Of a stretch of DNA of 64,000 nt, positions 47,956 to 61,148 are shown in pieces; position 1 is the stretch's first letter; each line of letters opens with the position of its first letter. The stretch comes from Phenylobacterium sp. (GTDB lineage Bacteria; Pseudomonadota; Alphaproteobacteria; Caulobacterales; Caulobacteraceae). The notes beneath the pieces are model-generated. The model searched no databases. It saw only the letters and a program-made list of their open reading frames with translations, and was not told the origin of the DNA. Location: assembly GCF_036495085.1 (NCBI RefSeq), contig NZ_DASXNL010000008.1, forward strand, positions 30,015 to 94,014, in the 5' to 3' direction. Both the position numbers and the translations under genes were made by a program.

Positions 47956-48870
47956 ATGGGAACTGTCTCGGCGGGGCGGGCGATCGCGGCGGGGTTCAGG
48001 CTGGTGGGCCGCGAGCCGCTGAGCTTCCTGGTCTGGATGGCCGCCTATCTGCTGGTCGGAGTACTTCCGCAGATAGGCGCCTTTGCGCTGGTCGCGCCGG
48101 CGTGGTCACGGATGATGCGGGAGCTCACCGCAACCGCCGACGCCGGTGGGGCGATGCCCTCCGCCGAAATGATGCGAATGCAGCTGCAGATGATGCAGGC
48201 GCAGCCGATTGCTTGGCTCGCCGGTGTCGTCAGCCACACGCTCGTGCTGAGCGCGATCTACCGCGCCGTACTGTTCCCGGAAGAGCGGAGGTTCTTCTAC
48301 CTGCGGCTCGGCAAGCGGGAGCTTTGGCTTGGGCTCGTCATGCTGGTCTTGGCGGTGATGCTGTTCCTGGCGTTTCTGGCGCTCATGCTGCCCCTTGCCG
48401 TGATCGGCGGAATTGTCGCGGCGGTTTCGCCTGACAGTCGGATGGTCGGCGCTGTGATCGCGCTCATGGTGCTTATGGGTCTAGGAGTCGGGTTGTGGGC
48501 GGCGCTCAGGCTCTCGATGGCGACGCCCATGAGCTTCGCCGAGAACGGCTTCAGGCTCTATGAATCCTGGGGCGTCACCCGGGGACACGCGGGGAAGATG
48601 TTTCTGGTGGGCCTGGCGTTGGCGGTCATCATCTGGATCGCCGAACTTGTCGTCGCCGGCGGTGCGATCGGGGCGGTCGGGACCGCGGGCTTCGAGCACT
48701 TGGGCGACTGGTTCCGACACCCCCACTTCGACCTGGCGAGCGCCACGCCCTGGATCGTCGCCGGGTGCGTTGCGGCCGCCTTCCTGTCGACCGCTTTCTT
48801 CACACTTTTCGGAGCGGCCTGGGCGGAGATCTATCGCGAGCTCTCAGGCAAGACGCAGCCCGCCGTCTGA
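47956..48870 (+). CDS. Polytopic membrane protein, unknown function
   Basis: About 6-7 hydrophobic segments, RBS GGGAGG, coding-like composition. Confidence 0.75.
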   Translation: MGTVSAGRAIAAGFRLVGREPLSFLVWMAAYLLVGVLPQIGAFALVAPAWSRMMRELTATADAGGAMPSAEMMRMQLQMMQAQPIAWLAGVVSHTLVLSAIYRAVLFPEERRFFYLRLGKRELWLGLVMLVLAVMLFLAFLALMLPLAVIGGIVAAVSPDSRMVGAVIALMVLMGLGVGLWAALRLSMATPMSFAENGFRLYESWGVTRGHAGKMFLVGLALAVIIWIAELVVAGGAIGAVGTAGFEHLGDWFRHPHFDLASATPWIVAGCVAAAFLSTAFFTLFGAAWAEIYRELSGKTQPAV

Positions 48871-51937: not shown

Positions 51938-52747
51938 TTGTTCAACACCGACGCCAAGATCATCCAGCGCATGGCGCCGTTGCTGCAGCGGGTGATGATC
52001 GTGGATCCACAGCCGGCCGGCGCGCGGCTGATCAGCGAACTGATGCGCGACATCGCCCGCTCTCAGATCTGTGTGGCGGAGACGGAGGCGAAGGCCCTGC
52101 GCTTGACCGCCAGCTTCGAGCCGCAGGTCATCTTCGCCGAGCACGGTTCGACGCCGGTGGACGGCGTGGCCTTCACCCGCAACCTGCGCCGCAGCCACCT
52201 GCCGTGCCGTTACGCGCCGGTGATCATTGTGACCGGTCAGGCCACCGCGGCCGGCATCCTGGAGGCCCGCGACGCCGGCGTTCACGAGTTCCTTCGCAAG
52301 CCATTCACGCTCAAGGACCTCCTGCGGCGGCTGGAGGCGGTGACGCTTCGTCCGCGCGATTGGGTCGAGGCGGTCTGCTACGTCGGCCCCGACCGGCGGC
52401 GGTTCAATTCGGGCGACTATACCGGCGCCCTGAAGCGCCGCTCCGATGCGCGCGCGACGCCTGATTCAGAGCGCCTCGCCCAGGCCCTGAAGATCCTGCG
52501 CTCGGCGATCGTCGCGGTCGGCAGCGATCCCGTTCAGGCCATGCGCTCCATGCAGGCCCAGGTCACCGACCTGCGCAAATGCGGCATGAGCGTCGCCGAC
52601 CTGAAGCTGACCACCTCGGCCATCGACTTCGGCCGTCATCTCGACCAGATCGAGCGCAAGGGCGCACCCTACGATGGCGAGGAACTGGCCGCGAAAGCCG
52701 CCCCTCTGCTGGCCTACATGCCACAGGAAGAAGCCGTCGCGGCGTGA
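51938..52747 (+). CDS. CheY-like receiver protein with Arg-rich c-di-GMP-binding region (Cle-like)
   Basis: Receiver fold (MIVD..., EFLRKPF) followed by W....YVGPDRRR.....Y.G..KRRSD; phospho-Asp position appears to be Glu. Confidence 0.75.
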   Translation: MFNTDAKIIQRMAPLLQRVMIVDPQPAGARLISELMRDIARSQICVAETEAKALRLTASFEPQVIFAEHGSTPVDGVAFTRNLRRSHLPCRYAPVIIVTGQATAAGILEARDAGVHEFLRKPFTLKDLLRRLEAVTLRPRDWVEAVCYVGPDRRRFNSGDYTGALKRRSDARATPDSERLAQALKILRSAIVAVGSDPVQAMRSMQAQVTDLRKCGMSVADLKLTTSAIDFGRHLDQIERKGAPYDGEELAAKAAPLLAYMPQEEAVAA

Positions 52748-52797: not shown

Positions 52798-53541
52798 CTA
52801 CTCGACTTCCCAATCGAACTCGCCGCGCACGTCGAAAGGCGCTTCGCAGAGGCATGTGTTCAGGCCTTCACGGGTGCCTTTGCGCGGCAGGCGGAAGACG
52901 AACTCGATGCGGTCCTTCGCGAAGGATTTGTGTTCGCCGACGATCTTGCAGCCCTGGCCCTCCAGCACCTGGCGATAGACCTGGGCGCATTCTCCGACGC
53001 GTCCCGGCGGGAGCTGGCTGATCCTGACGCGGCAGATGGGCCGCGAATCGAACAGGTAGATCAGGACGAAGGCGAAGAGCGTGGTGATCGCCGCAAAATG
53101 CGGCAGGCCGAGGCCGCAGCTCAGCCCCACCAGGGTGACGATGATAAGCCGGCCGGTATTCCGCGCCGAGGCCGTATCGGTGCGGAACCTCATTAGCCCG
53201 CCGAGGCCGAAGACCACTACGCCGACGACCATGCCGAACTCGCGCACAGTCACCCCGATCACCGCGCCGATGAAGGCGTAGAGAATATAGACCCTGGGCA
53301 TGTCGGCTTCGCTGAGGGTATCCACCGTACGCGGAGTAGTCGGGTGGTAGGCGATCAGCACGCTTAGCCCTGTCGCCATGAGCAGGGCGCCGATCGACTC
53401 GGCCATGAAGCGCGTGTCGAGGAAGCCGGCCCAGCCGGCGGCGGAAAGCTGGCCCTGCGGCGCCTCGAACAGCCCGTGGGTCTGAGCCCAGGCGACACTC
53501 GGCGCCAACAGCAACAGAAGAAAGATCGTCAGCGATCGCAT
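52798..53541 (-). CDS. DUF4956-like membrane protein with signal peptide
   Basis: AWA-Q signal, 4-5 TMs, FGLGGLMRFRT..A..TG..I..VGL.CG.G pattern and C-terminal ACT-like domain. Confidence 0.7.
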   Translation of the reverse strand: MRSLTIFLLLLLAPSVAWAQTHGLFEAPQGQLSAAGWAGFLDTRFMAESIGALLMATGLSVLIAYHPTTPRTVDTLSEADMPRVYILYAFIGAVIGVTVREFGMVVGVVVFGLGGLMRFRTDTASARNTGRLIIVTLVGLSCGLGLPHFAAITTLFAFVLIYLFDSRPICRVRISQLPPGRVGECAQVYRQVLEGQGCKIVGEHKSFAKDRIEFVFRLPRKGTREGLNTCLCEAPFDVRGEFDWEVE

Positions 53542-53660
53542 TTGATATCCGCCCACGCCCAATTGGGCAGGTTGGGCGCGGCCCGCGGCTTTGGCAAGCG
53601 GGGCCACCTGGAGATACCGAAGGCGGTGCGCCCGCGCCGTCGAGGCGATATGATCGGCCC

Positions 53661-54779
53661 ATGACCAGGGTGTTCGCCGGCTTACTCGCCGTGCTCGCGG
53701 TGAGCTTAGCGGCTCCCGCGCAAGCGCAATCCGCATGGGACCATGTCGCCCGCGTAGTGGTGATCGGTGACCTGCACGGCGATTATGGAAAGTTTCACGA
53801 CCAGCTCATCCAGGCCGGCCTGATCAACGGGCGGGACGCCTGGAGCGGGGGCGCGACCCACCTTGTGCAGCTCGGCGATGTTCCTGATCGCGCTCCCGAC
53901 ACCCGCAAGATCCTCGATCTGCTGATTAAGCTCGAGCCGCAGGCGCGCCGCGCAGGCGGCTACGTGCACGCACTGATTGGCAACCACGAAGCCATGAACA
54001 TGGAGGGCGACCTGCGCTATACGACGCCGGCGGAATTTGCGGCGTTCGTGGATCGCGATTCCGCGGCGCGACGCGACGCCTACTATGCCCGCGTCGTCGA
54101 CGCGCTGAAGGCGAACCCGCCGGCCGCAGGAGTGCCGACCTTCGACGAGGCGTTTCGCGCGAAGTTCGACGCCGAGCACCCGCTGGGCTGGGTGGAGCAT
54201 CGGGCCGCCTGGTCGCCGAACGGTGTCTACGGACGGTGGGTGCTGACGCACAACGCGGTCATACGCATTGATGACGCCCTCTACCTGCACGGCGGGATCG
54301 GCCCGGAGTTCGCGAGCTTTGACATCGATGTCCTGAACAAGGCTGTGATCTCCGCCCTGCGCCACGATCCGCAGGACGCCGCCGGCCCCCAGGACATCCT
54401 GTGGAACGAGCAGGGCCCGCTCTGGTATCGCGGCATGGCGATGAACGACGAGGCTACGGAAGCCGCGCACGTCGCCGCGGTCCTGACGCGCTATAAGGTG
54501 CGCCGCATCGTGCTCGGCCACACCAAGCGCTACTCTATGGTGAACGCCCGTTTCGACGGCGGGGTGATCCTGACCGACATCGCCGTCCCAGGTGGTTGCC
54601 TCGACCCTCATGGGTTCCTGATCAAGGAAGGCGACACCCTCACCGCCGTGCACCGCGGCCACCGCCTGACGCTGGGCCTGTCCGGCGCAGCGCATGACGC
54701 TTACCTCGCCGAGATCGCGGCCCTGGACCGTGCGGTCGCGCTTGGGGCGGGGCTCGCCCCGACATGCACGGTGAAATAA
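53661..54779 (+). CDS. Secreted calcineurin-like/PPP metallophosphoesterase (Shewanella-like phosphatase type)
   Basis: AQA-Q signal; GDLHG, GDVPDR, GNHE, HGG, GHT motifs. Confidence 0.9.
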   Translation: MTRVFAGLLAVLAVSLAAPAQAQSAWDHVARVVVIGDLHGDYGKFHDQLIQAGLINGRDAWSGGATHLVQLGDVPDRAPDTRKILDLLIKLEPQARRAGGYVHALIGNHEAMNMEGDLRYTTPAEFAAFVDRDSAARRDAYYARVVDALKANPPAAGVPTFDEAFRAKFDAEHPLGWVEHRAAWSPNGVYGRWVLTHNAVIRIDDALYLHGGIGPEFASFDIDVLNKAVISALRHDPQDAAGPQDILWNEQGPLWYRGMAMNDEATEAAHVAAVLTRYKVRRIVLGHTKRYSMVNARFDGGVILTDIAVPGGCLDPHGFLIKEGDTLTAVHRGHRLTLGLSGAAHDAYLAEIAALDRAVALGAGLAPTCTVK

Positions 54780-54782
54780 CGC

Positions 54783-55844
54783 CTAGCGACAGTGCCCGAC
54801 TAAACTTTTCTGGACGCGCTGCGGATCATCAAGAACCGCATAGAAGCCGTCGATGAAACGCGCCGTCTTGTTGCGGAAGCCGTCGTTCAGGCGCGGCTCG
54901 CCGTTGATCAGCGCCATCACCTGCGCGCGGTGGTCTCGGTATTCCTCGACGACGGCGGGAATATCGCCGCTGCTCACGCAATAGCCACGGTAGAGGCGCT
55001 CCGTCAGTTTGGTCACCGGAAGACTGGGTGGCGGTCCCGCGTACGGCGAATCCACAAAGCCTGAGTAGTCGAAGTCATAGGGCACCGGCGCCACGCCGCT
55101 CGCTGTGGCCGGCGTCGCCTTCCGCGCGGCGACAAGAAGGGCGTTGTGGCAGCAGTCGGCGCCCGGCGGTGCTGCGAGAAAATCCCAGTCGAGGTTGCCG
55201 ATCATGAACTCGAACAACGCCGCTCGCGCCGAAGCCCGCGCGTCCAGCTGCGCTGCCGAGATCTCGTGCGACTTGGCCGCGAGGTGGTCGCGCTGGTTGC
55301 GGTCGGCGACATCGTCGATGTTCTCGACCAGGAAGCCGAACCGCTTCACCGGCTCGCCACCGCCGGCGCTGTTCTGATACGTGACGTCCGCCGCGCGCAC
55401 CCGGAAGCTCATCGGCGTCATCAGATTGTAGAGCCGATAGGCGAGGTACTCGAGCACGATGCGTTGCTCATAGTCCGACACCGGCCGGCAGTAGGTCACC
55501 AGCTTGAGCTTGTGCTGACCCTGGAAGACGGTTCCGTGCGCCGCGGCCTTGTCGAACTTCAGGTAGAGCGGCGGAAAGCTGCAATAGCCGGCGGTGCGCC
55601 GGGTGTGGCCGCGCGGTCTCAACTCGACGGGCAGGGTCTTGGGAGCGCCCGCGCCGTCGACGACCGACAGGCTGGCTGGGTAAGGCTTAGTGCTCGTCTT
55701 GGCGCTGCTGACCAGGGCCGGAAAAGGGGCGCTGATGACGATTTGGAGAGGTGCGTCACTGGAAAACAGCCGCGATTGCGCCGCTGCAGGTAGTGCGACA
55801 GCCCACGTAAGCGCCATGAGCCCGCACCAAAGCGCCCTGTCCAT
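54783..55844 (-). CDS. Secreted protein with CotH/atypical kinase-like motifs
   Basis: AAA-Q signal; KLKLVTYC, EYLAYRLY, GFLVE, FEFMIGNLDW..HN, PYDFD resemble CotH/PI3K-like kinase elements. Confidence 0.6.
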   Translation of the reverse strand: MDRALWCGLMALTWAVALPAAAQSRLFSSDAPLQIVISAPFPALVSSAKTSTKPYPASLSVVDGAGAPKTLPVELRPRGHTRRTAGYCSFPPLYLKFDKAAAHGTVFQGQHKLKLVTYCRPVSDYEQRIVLEYLAYRLYNLMTPMSFRVRAADVTYQNSAGGGEPVKRFGFLVENIDDVADRNQRDHLAAKSHEISAAQLDARASARAALFEFMIGNLDWDFLAAPPGADCCHNALLVAARKATPATASGVAPVPYDFDYSGFVDSPYAGPPPSLPVTKLTERLYRGYCVSSGDIPAVVEEYRDHRAQVMALINGEPRLNDGFRNKTARFIDGFYAVLDDPQRVQKSLVGHCR

Positions 55845-56000
55845 ACCGGTTCCCCCTCGGCTTCAAGGCTGATCTTGGCATGGCCAGCGAAAGCCTTGAA
55901 GGGGCCGGTGAGCGCCGATTACCGATCAGGTCGCTACGTCGTCCGCGAGCCGCCGGCCCCCGCGCCAGGCATTTATCGACGCCGGCGTCTCGTCGCGGAC

Positions 56001-56034
56001 AAAAAAAGGGCGTCCACTTGGTCGGTGGACGCCC
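56001..56034 (-). terminator. Intrinsic terminator of rpoH
   Basis: Minus strand GGGCGTCCAC-N7-GTGGACGCCC-T7. Confidence 0.9.
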
Positions 56035-56063
56035 TTCGATGGTTCCTTGAACCGCGCTTAAGC

Positions 56064-57168: not shown

Positions 57169-59973
57169 TCACGAGAAGAGCTTGCGGAAGCTGATCCGCC
57201 AGGTCCGGCCAAGGGGGTCTATGTAGGCCGGCTGGAAGTTCAGGGGCGTCACGCCATTGGCGTCTCGAACCTCGACGCGCTCGTCGAAGATGTTGGACAC
57301 CGACAACGTGACCCGCGAGCCCTTCAACCAGGGCGCGCGGTCCATGAGGGCCGTGCGGCGACCAAGGTCGGCGAATACGCGGGCATTCACCTTCACGACG
57401 CCTGAAAAGCTCAGGTCGCTGGCGCCGTCGTCTGCGCCGCCGCGCACCATTGTGCCGATTTTCCAGTCGGCGTTGAGCTCAGCGCCGAAGCCTCGCTCGG
57501 CGATGTTTATCTGCGCCTGGATTTCGTGGCGCGGCTGGCCGCCGAGCCCCCCGAGCGAGGCGCCGTTGAGGAAGTCGAGCACCGGCCCTTCCGGGCCGAC
57601 GAGGTAGCGGTTTACGAAATAGACCGTGTGGAACACGCTGATGCGCAGTCGGCCGTCCCGCGAGCCGCCACGCCCGCCAAAGCCGCCGGACGGCGCGCCG
57701 GCGACGCCGTCCGGTGGTGGTCCGGCGAATTGCCCTGCGCCGCCGTCCGGGGCGGGCCCGTCAGGCGCTCGGCCCGGAGCGCCGGGCGGTCTCTGTTGCC
57801 GCGGCGTGGCACTCGGCGGAAGCGCGCGGCGGATCTGGACGAGCGCCGCATTGCGCGGCGGTGGGGCGGTGACGGGGCCGATCGGGCGAGAGTAGTCGAA
57901 GCCCCATTTCAAAGAGCTGACGTCCTGGCTGGCGAAATTGAGCGGGCGCTCGTCGACTTCGGTCAGATCGCCGTCGGCGTCGCGCAGGAAGCGGTCGGGA
58001 AAGGCGGCTTCGATGTCCGCTGTGACCGCCGGGAAGGTGGCTATCGGGTTCTTGTAATGGATCTTGTTGTAGTCGGCCCGGAAGATCAGCTGCTTGTCGG
58101 AAAAGGGCTGCCAGGTCACCCGGATCGAGGTGCGATAGCGATCGTCGGAGACCAAGTCCGGATTGCCGCCGGAGATCGCGGTGACGTCGACGGTCTGTCC
58201 GGTCACATAGTCGAAGATGCGCGTGCCCGGGGTGAGAAGCACTGTCGCGCCGAGTTGTTGCTGCGTCGGCGCACCCTGGTCGTGGAGGCGAGACGCCAGG
58301 ATGCTGAGGCCGGTGATCGGGGTCCAATGGACGCCGTAGCCGAAGGTGGTGAGCGTCCCAAAGTCGGATACGCTCTCAACGGCGGCATTGGCATTGAGAT
58401 TGATGTCTCCGAACATCGCCAGCACGTTGGCTTTTCTGCTGGTCAGGGGCACGTCGAAACTGGCTTGCAGATTGCCGCCGCTCCGAGTGAGGTCAGAGGA
58501 CAGCTCAACCCCGCCGCGTTGCGACTGCGAAGAAAACTCGCTCCCCGAAGCGCCGATTCGCAGGCTGGTCCGCACCGGTCCAGCCGGCATCTTGAACAGT
58601 ATTCCGGACGCTATGAACTGGATGTTGCCGCTGTCGGACTTCGAGTGGCTGGTGTCCTGGGGGCGCAGCGCCAGGAGGCTAGTGGGCAGCGCGCCGAACG
58701 GATTGACGCCAGGAGCGCCAGAGAGGAGCGCGTTCTGCAGGGCCGCCGGGTCGACTCCCAGGTCGTTGGCGTTGCGATTGTCCGCATGATCGTAGTTGCC
58801 GGTCAGCGCCAGCCGCCAACTGGCGACGTCGCGGTTGAAGCTGACACCAAGATGGCCGGTCCAGGTGTCGGCGCTCTGCTGCAGGGGGCCGAAATCCTGG
58901 ACGTAGCGGTCCAGCTGCACCGCTTCCGCAAAGGGCGAGAACGGGTCGGCGGCCGGGACCAGCAAACCTATCCCCGGCAGCCCGCGCTGGGCGTCGCTGG
59001 AGGTTGCTTCGAACGTGGCGTTCACGGTGGCGCTGATGTCAGCAAATATCGGGCGGGTAAGGGTCGCGTTGAGGGCGGCTTTTTGCGTTTCCGGCACGAG
59101 GGTGCGGAAGGCCCTGACGTCGGTCACGTTGGGGACGTTCGCAGTGGGAACGAAGTCGGAGAGCGTGAGGACCCGAGCGGCCACGCCCGCGGGGACGCCA
59201 GCGATCGTCACCCGTTGGCCGGCGAGCGCGCTCAGCGCCGGGTCGATCTCCCCACTGGACGTGGGCCCGAGCACATTGCCCGCCAGGTCGAACGGCGTGC
59301 CATTGGTAGGTGAGATCACGTCCCGCTGCGCCTCGGTCAACGAGGACTGGGTGTTGACCTTCAGGTTGATATTGAAGCGTTGCTCGCCTGCGATCCGTGT
59401 CGCGCTGAGCTCGGCCTGGCCGCTTGCTGCGCCGCCTGCGGTGGTCGCTCCGCCGCCCGCTTCGGCGGTCTGCGCGCCGAAGCTGGGCTTGAGCACGATG
59501 TTCACCACGCGCTGGTTGGCTGAGAAGCCGTACTTGAGCGCCGCCTCCTCAGGCAGAATGTCGACTCTCAGGATCGCCTCGGTAGGCAGGTTGCGGATCT
59601 CATTGAAGCCCGAGATGCGGCGGCCGTTGACCAGGATCGCGGGCCCCTCCCCGCCGCGCCCGCTGTTGCTGCCGATTTCCGGGGCCAGTTCGTCGAGTAG
59701 GTCCGTGATCGTGCTGACGCCGTAGGCCGCGACGTCCTCCGGCGCGAGCTGAAGGTCCGGCTTGATGTCGCCGACGACGGCGCCGGGCTCTGTGCGTGGC
59801 TCGGCGGTGACGACCAGTTCGGAGACGGTGCCGGGCTTGCCCACAATCGCGGACTCGGACGGGGCGGCCGCCGGCGCGGCGGCCGATGCGCTTGCCAGCA
59901 CAGCGAAGCCTGCGCTGGCGCACAGCTTTGCGGCCAGCCGGCGCCGAAAGGTCGTCAGGTCCGTAGAAATCAC
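57169..59973 (-). CDS. TonB-dependent outer-membrane receptor
   Basis: Signal peptide, TonB box VSELVVTA, plug ILVNGRR..IR.LP.EAI.RVDIL..YG..VVNIVL, C-terminal P.GRTW.ISFRKLF; start at GTG 59973 inferred. Confidence 0.88.
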   Translation of the reverse strand: MISTDLTTFRRRLAAKLCASAGFAVLASASAAAPAAAPSESAIVGKPGTVSELVVTAEPRTEPGAVVGDIKPDLQLAPEDVAAYGVSTITDLLDELAPEIGSNSGRGGEGPAILVNGRRISGFNEIRNLPTEAILRVDILPEEAALKYGFSANQRVVNIVLKPSFGAQTAEAGGGATTAGGAASGQAELSATRIAGEQRFNINLKVNTQSSLTEAQRDVISPTNGTPFDLAGNVLGPTSSGEIDPALSALAGQRVTIAGVPAGVAARVLTLSDFVPTANVPNVTDVRAFRTLVPETQKAALNATLTRPIFADISATVNATFEATSSDAQRGLPGIGLLVPAADPFSPFAEAVQLDRYVQDFGPLQQSADTWTGHLGVSFNRDVASWRLALTGNYDHADNRNANDLGVDPAALQNALLSGAPGVNPFGALPTSLLALRPQDTSHSKSDSGNIQFIASGILFKMPAGPVRTSLRIGASGSEFSSQSQRGGVELSSDLTRSGGNLQASFDVPLTSRKANVLAMFGDINLNANAAVESVSDFGTLTTFGYGVHWTPITGLSILASRLHDQGAPTQQQLGATVLLTPGTRIFDYVTGQTVDVTAISGGNPDLVSDDRYRTSIRVTWQPFSDKQLIFRADYNKIHYKNPIATFPAVTADIEAAFPDRFLRDADGDLTEVDERPLNFASQDVSSLKWGFDYSRPIGPVTAPPPRNAALVQIRRALPPSATPRQQRPPGAPGRAPDGPAPDGGAGQFAGPPPDGVAGAPSGGFGGRGGSRDGRLRISVFHTVYFVNRYLVGPEGPVLDFLNGASLGGLGGQPRHEIQAQINIAERGFGAELNADWKIGTMVRGGADDGASDLSFSGVVKVNARVFADLGRRTALMDRAPWLKGSRVTLSVSNIFDERVEVRDANGVTPLNFQPAYIDPLGRTWRISFRKLFS

Positions 59974-60125
59974 TCGCCGATCATCCGCAGGCCGGCCGCA
60001 AACGGCCCGCCGTGGTCCCCAAAAAAGCCCGGCCTGTCTGGTCGCCTCCAAGCCCGGCCAATTGAGGGCGCCATTGTTGCGTCGGCATTGCCTCTCGTCG
60101 GCGGACGCTTGCGCTTGTGAAACGC

Positions 60126-61148
60126 TCAGAGTTGCTCGAGCAACGCCTGCAGCGTTGCGATGTCCGGCGGCAAGGGGCTCTCGAACCTCAGGACCTCGCC
60201 AGTGACCGGATGGCGGAAGCCGAGCACGGCAGCATGCAGCGCTTGGCGCTTCAGGCCCGCCTCGGCGATCGCGGCGCGGACCTTTTCCGCAGGTGGGCCT
60301 GAGCCGTAGGTGGGGTCGCCCAAGCATGGCGCGCCGGCCGAGGCGAGATGCACACGGATCTGGTGGGTGCGGCCGGTCTCCAGGGTGCAGGCGACGCGGG
60401 CGGCCAGAGGCTTTTCCTTGGCGCCGAAGGTCCGCTCGACGGCGTAGTGGGTGACCGCGTGACGCCCGCCGGATTTCACCAGGGCCATCTTCTTCCGATC
60501 GCTGGACGAACGCGCGATGGCGCCCTCAATGGTTCCACGGCTGGCCCGCGGCGCGCCGCGGGTGAGCGCGATGTAAACCCGATCGATGGCATGCGCGGCG
60601 AACAGGGCAGAGAGCCCGTTGTGGGCCGCGTCAGTCTTGGCGGCGACGACAATGCCGGAGGTGTCCTTGTCGATCCGGTGCACGATCCCCGGCCGCGCCA
60701 CGCCGCCGATACCCGAGAGGCTCGCGCCGCAGTGATGCAAGAGCGCGTTGACGAGGGTGCCGCTCTCGCTTCCGGGCGCCGGATGGACCGCCATGCCGGC
60801 CGGCTTGTCGACCACGATCAGGTCGGCGTCTTCGAAGAGCACGCTTAGGGGGATCGCCTCGGGGGCCGGCTCAGCAGCCACCGGAGGCGGGATCTCCAGG
60901 CGATAGGCGCCGGGCAGCGCCTTACCCGAGGCGTCGTTGACCGGCACGTGGTCGCGCCTGACGCGCCCCTGGGAGATAAGCGCCTGGATCCGGGCGCGTG
61001 ACATATCCGGCAAGAGGTCGGCCAGCATCTTGTCGACCCGCCCGCCAGCCTCGTCCGGGCCAACCGTCAGCAGCCGCACGCCGACGGCTTCGCCGCCGCC
61101 GCCATCAGGGTCGTCGCCGTCCGGGACGTCGGGCGAGTCAACGGCCAT
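60126..61148 (-). CDS. rluD: RluA family 23S rRNA pseudouridine synthase
   Basis: S4 domain, VVDKPAGM.VHP, GIVHRIDKDTSG, TGRTHQIRVH, RQALHA. Confidence 0.95.
   Translation of the reverse strand: MAVDSPDVPDGDDPDGGGGEAVGVRLLTVGPDEAGGRVDKMLADLLPDMSRARIQALISQGRVRRDHVPVNDASGKALPGAYRLEIPPPVAAEPAPEAIPLSVLFEDADLIVVDKPAGMAVHPAPGSESGTLVNALLHHCGASLSGIGGVARPGIVHRIDKDTSGIVVAAKTDAAHNGLSALFAAHAIDRVYIALTRGAPRASRGTIEGAIARSSSDRKKMALVKSGGRHAVTHYAVERTFGAKEKPLAARVACTLETGRTHQIRVHLASAGAPCLGDPTYGSGPPAEKVRAAIAEAGLKRQALHAAVLGFRHPVTGEVLRFESPLPPDIATLQALLEQL

Follow-up and report, generated by a model that had tools for sequence, protein, structure and literature searches.

The present analysis concerns three adjacent genes in a stretch of 64,000 nucleotides from Phenylobacterium sp. 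(NCBI RefSeq assembly GCF_036495085.1, contig NZ_DASXNL010000008.1, positions 30,015 to 94,014), which is referred to as the window and whose coordinates are used unless another contig or locus is named. The first gene, MEM, encodes a DUF4956-family inner-membrane protein of 247 amino acids (52798-53541, minus strand). The second, PHO, encodes an exported Shewanella-like metallophosphatase of the PPP family with 372 amino acids (53661-54779, plus strand), and the third, KIN, an exported kinase-like protein of 353 amino acids with a predicted CotH fold (54783-55844, minus strand). A previous reading of the DNA without database searches (the sequence-only reading) had proposed an extracytoplasmic kinase-phosphatase system at this site. 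The list of open reading frames of the window contains all three genes where that reading put them, and their coordinates confirm the spacing it gave, i.e. a divergent spacer of 119 bp between MEM and PHO (53542-53660), presumed to hold the promoters of both genes, and a convergent gap of 3 bp between PHO and KIN (54780-54782). The start of MEM is taken at MRSLTIF and not at that of the longest open reading frame, which extends to 53736, because the orthologues measure 244-249 amino acids. The region upstream of KIN (55845-56037, minus strand) is bounded by the intrinsic terminator of a sigma-factor gene (56037-56005), a hairpin of 13 pairs with a T-run. This terminator closes off the upstream side of KIN, which should therefore have its own promoter; its ribosome-binding site, GGGGGA, lies 6 nt 5' of the ATG. 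A promoter consensus scan of the spacers returned no sigma-70 consensus match. The G+C content is uniform across the region.

A single hydrophobic segment with an AxA site behind it (AAA-QS, AQA-QS and AWA-QT) opens each of the three proteins, in keeping with the Sec-type signal peptides previously assigned to all of them. The putative signal peptides of KIN and of PHO comprise residues ~1-22 in both cases, and hydropathy analysis displays no further hydrophobic segment in either protein.

KIN belongs to a large family, the members of which are named hypothetical in all sources. At least 1,267 matches were found among 8,000 scored candidates of a library clustered at 90%, and the family comprises 3,208 representatives at 50% identity, 947 of them with E <= 1e-30. 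Pfam and NCBIfam scans of KIN gave no match, a sequence search of the PDB with KIN alone gave only a chance match to a terpene synthase (E 1.2), and a PDB search with a profile of 31 KIN sequences gave nothing. All motif elements given by the sequence-only reading, in KIN as well as in PHO, were located at the expected positions. In KIN these are KLKLVT (residue 112), EYLAYR (132), GFLVE (170), IGNLDW (215), CCHN (231) and PYDFD (255), and the several Cys that had been remarked upon are residues 7, 88, 119, 231, 232, 289 and 352. Among 213 relatives with 33-70% identity, R78, G79, R82, E132, Y136, E174, D219, N234 and D257 are conserved in 100%, D259 and H233 in ~99%, and K114 in 95%; four of the Cys, C88, C119, C289 and C352, are invariant. 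Five invariant Arg (R78, R82, R150, R182, R283) are present in the family. Candidate catalytic residues are R78/G79/R82 (55599-55613), K114 (55503-55505), E132 (55449-55451), D219 (55188-55190), H233/N234 (55143-55148) and D257/D259 (55068-55076), all on the minus strand. A hydrophobic N-terminus precedes the first conserved motif in 130 of 140 gene calls of the family. Together with the four invariant Cys and with an extra membrane helix that stands before KIN in fusion proteins (see below), this points to an extracytoplasmic location, as had been suggested; KIN is probably disulfide-bonded.

The assignment of KIN to a kinase fold was checked with AlphaFold2 and Foldseek. The model, built from 27 sequences, reached a predicted local distance difference test score (pLDDT) of 81 and a predicted template modelling score of 0.82. 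Compared with the PDB, it matched the CotH kinase of Bacillus cereus first (5JD9, E 4.4e-8; 5JDA, E 5.7e-8), with a probability of 1.00 and a template modelling score of 0.52. The next structural matches are the lipid kinases PI4K and PI3K (E 3.9e-3 to 0.1), and Fam20C and HipA, which had been named as further candidates, are not within the top 50. The modelled fold thus agrees with the proposed kinase, CotH being the best and only strong match. The order of the motifs NxD / HN / [YF]DFD in KIN parallels NGD / N.N / PWD in canonical CotH. The spacing from Asp to Asp in canonical CotH is 23, the same as from D228 to D251 of Bacillus subtilis CotH, both of which are required for activity (PMC7821199). 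KIN carries 3 or ~10 extra residues between the catalytic Asp and Asn, the longer insert holding the Cys-Cys pair. D219, N234 and D257 were equated with the CotH Asp/Asn/Asp by motif order, hhalign being of low confidence over this stretch. Because of the fold, the invariant residues and the motif order, we take KIN for a distant phosphotransferase of the CotH fold that would be competent for catalysis.

PHO matches PF00149 (E 2.1e-11), and its nearest sequences in the PDB are those of the Shewanella protein-tyrosine phosphatase (2Z72/1V73/2ZBM, E 1.7e-31 to 7.9e-31), with an alignment covering residues 29-121 and 183-337; the next match is the Rhizobiales-like phosphatase RLPH2 (5VJV, E 7e-5). 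This similarity and the complete set of metal-binding motifs, GDLHG (residue 36), GDVPDR (72), GNHE (107), HGG (210) and GHT (286), bear out the earlier call of a PPP phosphoesterase. The PPP signature is present, with Ala as the last residue of motif 2 (GDVPDRA) in place of Gly. Among 57 orthologues GDxxDR is found in 56, GNH(E/D) in 56 and GDxHG in 47. Between GNHE and HGG there is a long insert, which is a mark of the Shelph clade (PMC535813). Of the C-terminal (I/L/V)D(S/T)G motif, variable among Shelphs (PMC535813), only the variant TDIA (residue 305) is found. By sequence, PHO falls among the Shelph phosphatases of the PPP family and is nearest to the enzymes of Shewanella and Colwellia.

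MEM scores 22.2 bits on PF16316 (DUF4956; E 1.3e-4), below the cut-off of 30.6 bits. All 30 aligned relatives match this family (best E 4e-7), and most close homologues carry a precomputed match to it, so that the description as DUF4956-like holds though MEM itself stays below the cut-off. On the MgtC family (PF02308, cut-off 31.4 bits) MEM is under the cut-off with 10.7 bits, and 18 of the 30 relatives give weak matches (best E 3.6e-4). Hydropathy displays the N-terminal signal-like segment and then about five membrane helices (residues ~38-166), which the AlphaFold2 model (pLDDT 77) places at 43-64, 81-102, 105-122, 126-143 and 147-166, after a signal-like helix at the N-terminus. Conserved charged or polar residues lie within these helices, namely E101, R118, D122, R131 and H148. 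In the model, residues 167-247 (52801-53043, minus strand) form a ferredoxin/ACT-like domain with the order beta-alpha-beta-beta-alpha-beta (strand 169-175, helix 182-195, strands 199-206 and 211-217, helix 224-232, strand 241-246). Foldseek returned only generic ferredoxin-like matches for this domain, such as the C-terminal domain of MgtC (2LQJ) and the ACT domain of aspartokinase, all with E >= 3.8e-3, and no match for the membrane part. From the helix count and the distribution of Lys and Arg, the ACT-like domain is predicted to be cytoplasmic.

The surroundings of KIN in other bacteria were surveyed by a pattern scan with one genome per GTDB species, which yielded at least 586 loci with a KIN relative. 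The best 80 of these come from Caulobacterales, Hyphomonadaceae, Parvularculaceae, Sphingomonadales and several gammaproteobacterial families, and further from Gemmatimonadota, an Opitutales genome (Verrucomicrobiota) and Bacteroidota. Two relatives with 60-65% identity stand beside the same two partner genes within wholly different flanks. By tblastn, PHO directly adjoins KIN in 59 of 83 loci, within differing flanks; the two genes are either convergent or co-directional, and overlaps of 4 nt are frequent in the co-directional layout. A DUF4956 gene lies beside KIN in at least 56 of the 83. The type found in the window accounts for only 6 of them (tblastn), and all-against-all clustering of the open reading frames in the flanks added 50 loci with a divergent DUF4956 family that exceeds the PF16316 cut-off (32.2 bits). 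A reading of DUF4956 as an accessory, lineage-specific partner was dropped because of these 50. The ACT-like domain is missing from most DUF4956 proteins that accompany KIN in other lineages; in Steroidobacteraceae, PHO, KIN and MEM form a co-directional operon (L018 and L025 in our numbering of loci) with a DUF4956 protein of the ACT-bearing type at 58-59% identity.

Partners were counted in those 57 loci in which KIN is flanked by at least 3 kb on either side. Both PHO and DUF4956 are present near KIN in 34 of them, PHO only in 8, DUF4956 only in 11 and neither in 4, so that one or both partners accompany KIN in 53 of the 57, with varying gene order. The co-occurrence of the three genes, which the neighbourhood check addressed, is thereby supported; the loci counted come from Alpha- and Gammaproteobacteria, Gemmatimonadota, Verrucomicrobiota and Bacteroidota. 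Moreover, one sample from the phylum, comprising 301 genomes, had KIN in 2 of them and a strong PHO orthologue (E <= 1e-60) in exactly the same 2. It might still be argued that the adjacency carries no meaning and that three unrelated exported proteins are chance neighbours, as they are transcribed separately here, two of them convergently. This is exceedingly improbable, and the neighbourhood counts all but refute it: the genes remain neighbours in at least four phyla amid changes of order and flanks, they share a phyletic pattern, and elsewhere they form translationally coupled operons. The linkage of KIN, PHO and DUF4956 is real, old and modular, and like the folds, motifs and export signals it can be taken as established.

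No other neighbour recurs broadly beside KIN in the 83 loci; no gene of phosphate transport or of the Pho regulon, no gene of glycan or lipid biosynthesis and no VTC gene is conserved there. The fourth recurrent gene, present in 18 of the 83, encodes an exported beta-propeller of the SdiA-regulated/YjiK-like type (PF06977, E 7e-6) with faint similarity to phytase, and sits between KIN or PHO and DUF4956 (L008-L017, L024, L034, L036, L039, L040, L063, L070, L073). In eight loci (L029, L031, L032, L048, L052, L055, L065, L071), mostly of Sphingomonadales and three of them from metagenome-assembled genomes labelled only Proteobacteria or Pseudomonadota, tandem genes of the DUF4956 family (~220 and ~290 amino acids) lie 3' of KIN, so that the membrane partner may be hetero-oligomeric there. 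A link of the polyphosphate kinase PPK1 to the module was considered and rejected: a single locus of the 83, L078 (594-2576, Longimicrobiales), has PPK1 within a few kb of KIN, next to a long DUF4956 protein.

Two long KIN relatives carry an N-terminal domain that matches the TLC family of ATP/ADP transporters. In a search with this domain, 33 of the 120 closest transporter clusters had a KIN domain at the C-terminus, in 30 cases at full length (E 1e-100 to 1e-118). Most of the 120 clusters stem from Gammaproteobacteria and bear the JGI name of ATP:ADP antiporter; those fused to KIN are only distantly related to TLC, with 28 bits to PF03219 and far under the cut-off of TIGR00769. Members of the fusion family (P0188, P0265, P0393-P0504; L101, 7001-9451) have ~800 amino acids and consist of a transporter of 12 helices resembling ATP:ADP antiporters, an extra membrane helix and KIN. 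The extra hydrophobic segment was seen before KIN in ~29 of 32 fusions examined, at the place where stand-alone KIN has its signal peptide. The 25 residues before it are rich in Lys and Arg (4-10, versus 0-3 Asp and Glu), and according to the positive-inside rule KIN would therefore lie on the outer face. Near one fusion gene, on a contig of 1.5 Mb, there is no PHO or DUF4956 gene, which is consistent with the fused transporter taking the place of the membrane partner. The fusions may be a hint that KIN relies on the transport of some compound, plausibly a nucleotide, across the inner membrane, and that in the common module this role may fall to DUF4956. Most unfused sisters of these transporters (~540 amino acids; P0391, P0395, P0438 and others; L102, 7001-8665) end in an Ig-like He_PIG domain (PF05345); such antiporter-like proteins, in which the Ig domain would face outwards, are found in free-living Xanthomonadales/Lysobacterales.

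Based on this dataset, we lean towards the hypothesis that the three genes constitute a periplasmic cycle of phosphorylation and dephosphorylation, with KIN as writer, PHO as eraser and the DUF4956 protein as link to the cytoplasm, most likely for the supply of the donor. What we infer on catalysis, on the shared substrate, on the donor and on the role of MEM can be put as follows. KIN, exported by Sec, would move phosphate from a nucleotide to a substrate in the envelope, with D219 as base and N234 and D257 for the metal. PHO, likewise exported, would remove the phosphate placed by KIN, and MEM in the inner membrane would deliver or gate the phosphoryl donor. As substrate, we give a slight preference to envelope proteins, since proteins are what the nearest characterised relatives of the two enzymes act upon. 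A wider proposition, which we regard as rather doubtful, is that Gram-negative bacteria feed nucleotide triphosphate into the periplasm via dedicated inner-membrane proteins, be it the transporter fused to KIN in the one clade or DUF4956 in the common module, and that this powers a widespread and hitherto unrecognised periplasmic kinase/phosphatase cycle.

Several points weigh against the proposed cycle. The periplasm is usually taken to contain neither ATP nor kinase signalling, and we know of no ATP source in it. Judged by gene orientation and the terminator upstream of KIN, the three genes are separate transcription units in this genome. The genome contains a second, intact paralogue of KIN (contig C33, 5489-6661, plus strand; L007), which shares 45% identity, keeps the catalytic residues and the four Cys, has a signal peptide and stands alone, with no PHO or DUF4956 gene nearby; its neighbours appear from their sequences to be an exported M20-type peptidase and an amidohydrolase. 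Loci of Gemmatimonadota keep DUF4956 and miss PHO, and loci of Bacteroidota keep PHO and miss DUF4956, for which reason the trio must be called modular and not obligate. With respect to the kinase itself, an hhalign comparison of the KIN family with 11 canonical CotH domains of the same phylum aligned only the N-lobe, with a probability of 15% and with the shared elements RG.s.R / L.L / EY, so that the argument for the fold rests on AlphaFold2 and Foldseek. PF08757 (CotH, gathering score 23.8 bits) has no match to KIN at E <= 0.1 and none in the whole genome, the control genomes being positive; sub-threshold matches are seen in 6 of 31 distant relatives of KIN (best E 0.0019, 18.2 bits). As far as the model goes, KIN is CotH-like by fold only and stands outside the CotH family of Pfam.

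A further difficulty arises from the fusions. All 30 of full length keep every invariant residue of KIN and have lost the Cys-Cys loop, and K114 is replaced by Pro or Ala in each of them, which makes the role of K114, or the donor, uncertain. Either K114 may not be the residue that contacts the nucleotide, R78 and R82 being candidates, or the fusion clade may work differently. The loss of K114 in the fusions, together with the lack of CotH membership at sequence level, may also suggest that KIN is not a phosphotransferase at all, but a pseudokinase, a ligand binder or an enzyme of other chemistry. Kinase folds with other chemistry do exist, as in the AMPylation by SelO. The module would then be of use in scavenging phosphate or in the handling of nucleotides, and PHO and, where present, the propeller would be its working enzymes, both being of phosphoesterase type if the phytase-like similarity holds. 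We consider this very unlikely, as Asp/Asn/Asp and Glu are invariant across phyla and in the fusions, which is unusual for pseudokinases, and as the expected companions from phosphate transport or the Pho regulon are not conserved nearby.

Doubt also attaches to the supply of the donor by MEM. Its distant relative MgtC is described as a regulator of other membrane proteins and not as a channel, and DUF4956 is without demonstrated transport, which is another point against the proposed cycle. MEM may accordingly be an MgtC-like regulator or sensor that binds a further membrane protein, whose ACT-like domain senses a cytoplasmic metabolite and whose state is set or read by KIN and PHO from the periplasm, and the donor would come from elsewhere, e.g. 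from released nucleotides or lipid-linked pyrophosphate. The weak matches of 18 of the 30 relatives to MgtC speak for this, as does the arrangement of a membrane domain with an ACT-like C-terminus, which mirrors MgtC. A protein of Streptococcus intermedius has been described in the same way (PMC12345266), and the absence of the ACT-like domain from most DUF4956 partners elsewhere makes it an add-on, typical of regulation. However, the fusions of transporter and KIN argue that KIN requires the passage of some compound through the membrane, the locus of such a fusion is without DUF4956, and the charged and polar residues in the DUF4956 helices would suit a pore or binding site. We hence judge a purely regulatory MEM to be distinctly unlikely, and retain the delivery or gating of a donor as its more plausible role in the proposed cycle.

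The two enzymes may work as described and yet have a target other than protein, such as an exopolysaccharide, lipopolysaccharide or another lipid, a periplasmic glucan or polyphosphate, in which case the module would modify the envelope and not signal. We give this a low but appreciable probability. Published sets of CotH and DUF4956 genes lie at pel loci and affect Pel-dependent aggregation; lipid kinases follow CotH among the structural matches of KIN, the many invariant Arg of KIN would suit an anionic ligand, and the frequent fourth gene encodes the phytase-like propeller. On the other hand, no gene of glycan or lipid biosynthesis is conserved at the 83 loci, the flanks in the window are housekeeping genes, and proteins are the substrates of those relatives of KIN and PHO that have been characterised.

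With regard to the remainder of the genome (4.5 Mb assembly, 95.6% complete), PF09359 gave no match in the whole assembly, the control genomes being positive, in accord with the earlier remark that no VTC gene is present here. PPK1 is present on another contig. DUF4956 and PHO each occur once in the genome, and tblastn searches of it for the beta-propeller, a TLC-like transporter and a second DUF4956 were negative. The genes flanking the module in the window are housekeeping or unrelated, namely those for adenylosuccinate synthetase, an orphan response regulator, a factor of the sigma-70 family, by its sequence resembling the heat-shock sigma, and an open reading frame resembling a divergent TonB receptor. 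The orphan response regulator (51938-52747, plus strand) consists of a receiver domain and ~130 residues without family match, and its gene converges on MEM with a gap of 50 bp; this pairing is not kept in the related loci examined. The TonB-receptor-like frame (57169-60327, minus strand) has 1,052 codons, a weak match to the Plug domain (E 0.0026), no match to the TonB-receptor barrel and a Pro/Gly/Ala-rich insert near the C-terminal third, and is probably a divergent TonB-dependent receptor. A multi-pass membrane protein of 304 amino acids without Pfam or NCBIfam match is encoded at 47956-48870 (plus strand).

If KIN is active, the module would offer a concrete system for extracytoplasmic phosphorylation in Gram-negative bacteria, and a first functional handle both on DUF4956 and on CotH-type proteins in organisms that do not form spores. 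If nucleotide is indeed fed into the periplasm, ATP-dependent phosphorylation would take place in a compartment usually taken as ATP-free. Cultured carriers of the module exist, hence the question is open to experiment; non-pathogenic candidates are Sphingomonas rhizophila KACC 19189 (with the order PHO-KIN-MEM-MEM, L055), Qipengyuania polymorpha 1NDH17 (L080) and Caulobacter sp. KR2-114 (P0075/P0355).

The Bacillus CotH spore-coat Ser kinase (PF08757; 5JD9/5JDA) shares with KIN the order NxD / N / (W/Y)D, a weak similarity in the N-lobe and an action outside the cytoplasm proper. In contrast to it, KIN is only ~13% identical, has no Pfam match, carries the insert of 3 or ~10 residues and the four invariant Cys, and occurs in non-sporulating Gram-negatives, where a phosphatase and a membrane protein are its partners; the activity of KIN is predicted. 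PHO resembles the Shewanella PPI/CAPTPase and the Shelph clade (Andreeva & Kutuzov 2004, PMC535813) in the five motifs and in the long insert between GNHE and HGG. It differs from Shelphs in having GDVPDRA for GDxxDRG and TDIA for (I/L/V)D(S/T)G, and a systematic pairing with a kinase fold has not been reported previously. Distant relatives of the TLC/AAA ATP:ADP antiporters (PF03219, TIGR00769) are fused to KIN in Gammaproteobacteria and suggest nucleotide exchange for a kinase on the outside; no TLC-type antiporter is present in this window or, by tblastn, in the genome. MEM shares the membrane domain and the ACT-like C-terminal domain with the MgtC family (PF02308), whereas DUF4956 is the better match for MEM and the locus shows no connection with Mg2+ or with the regulation of virulence. 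The eukaryotic kinases of Fam20C type in the secretory pathway are atypical kinases in a compartment that needs imported ATP, and are opposed by lumenal or extracellular phosphatases. They share only the concept with KIN; Fam20C is outside its top 50 structural matches and no homology is claimed.

The closest precedent by gene content are the pel loci of Gram-positive bacteria, in which a CotH-like gene, a DUF4956 gene and a VTC-type 'polyphosphate polymerase' are accessory genes (Whitfield et al. 2020, bioRxiv 10.1101/768473 = PMC7112168). In Streptococcus intermedius (SIR_1592-1594), mutants of the CotH-like gene and of the DUF4956 gene reduce Pel-dependent aggregation, and the DUF4956 protein is described with four transmembrane segments, a membrane domain of MgtC type and an ACT domain on the intracellular side (PMC12345266). 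The locus described here likewise links an exported CotH-type protein to a DUF4956 protein with an ACT-like C-terminus. It differs in that there is no VTC gene and no polysaccharide locus, in that KIN belongs to a different kinase branch, in the Shelph phosphatase as the commonest partner and in the envelope of two membranes. Full-text searches of the literature found no description of this kinase branch, of its pairing with a Shelph or of the transporter fusion, in line with the opinion of the sequence-only reading that no system of this composition has been described. We therefore class the finding as a variant of the published, unexplained association of CotH and DUF4956, built around a new and unannotated branch of the CotH fold.

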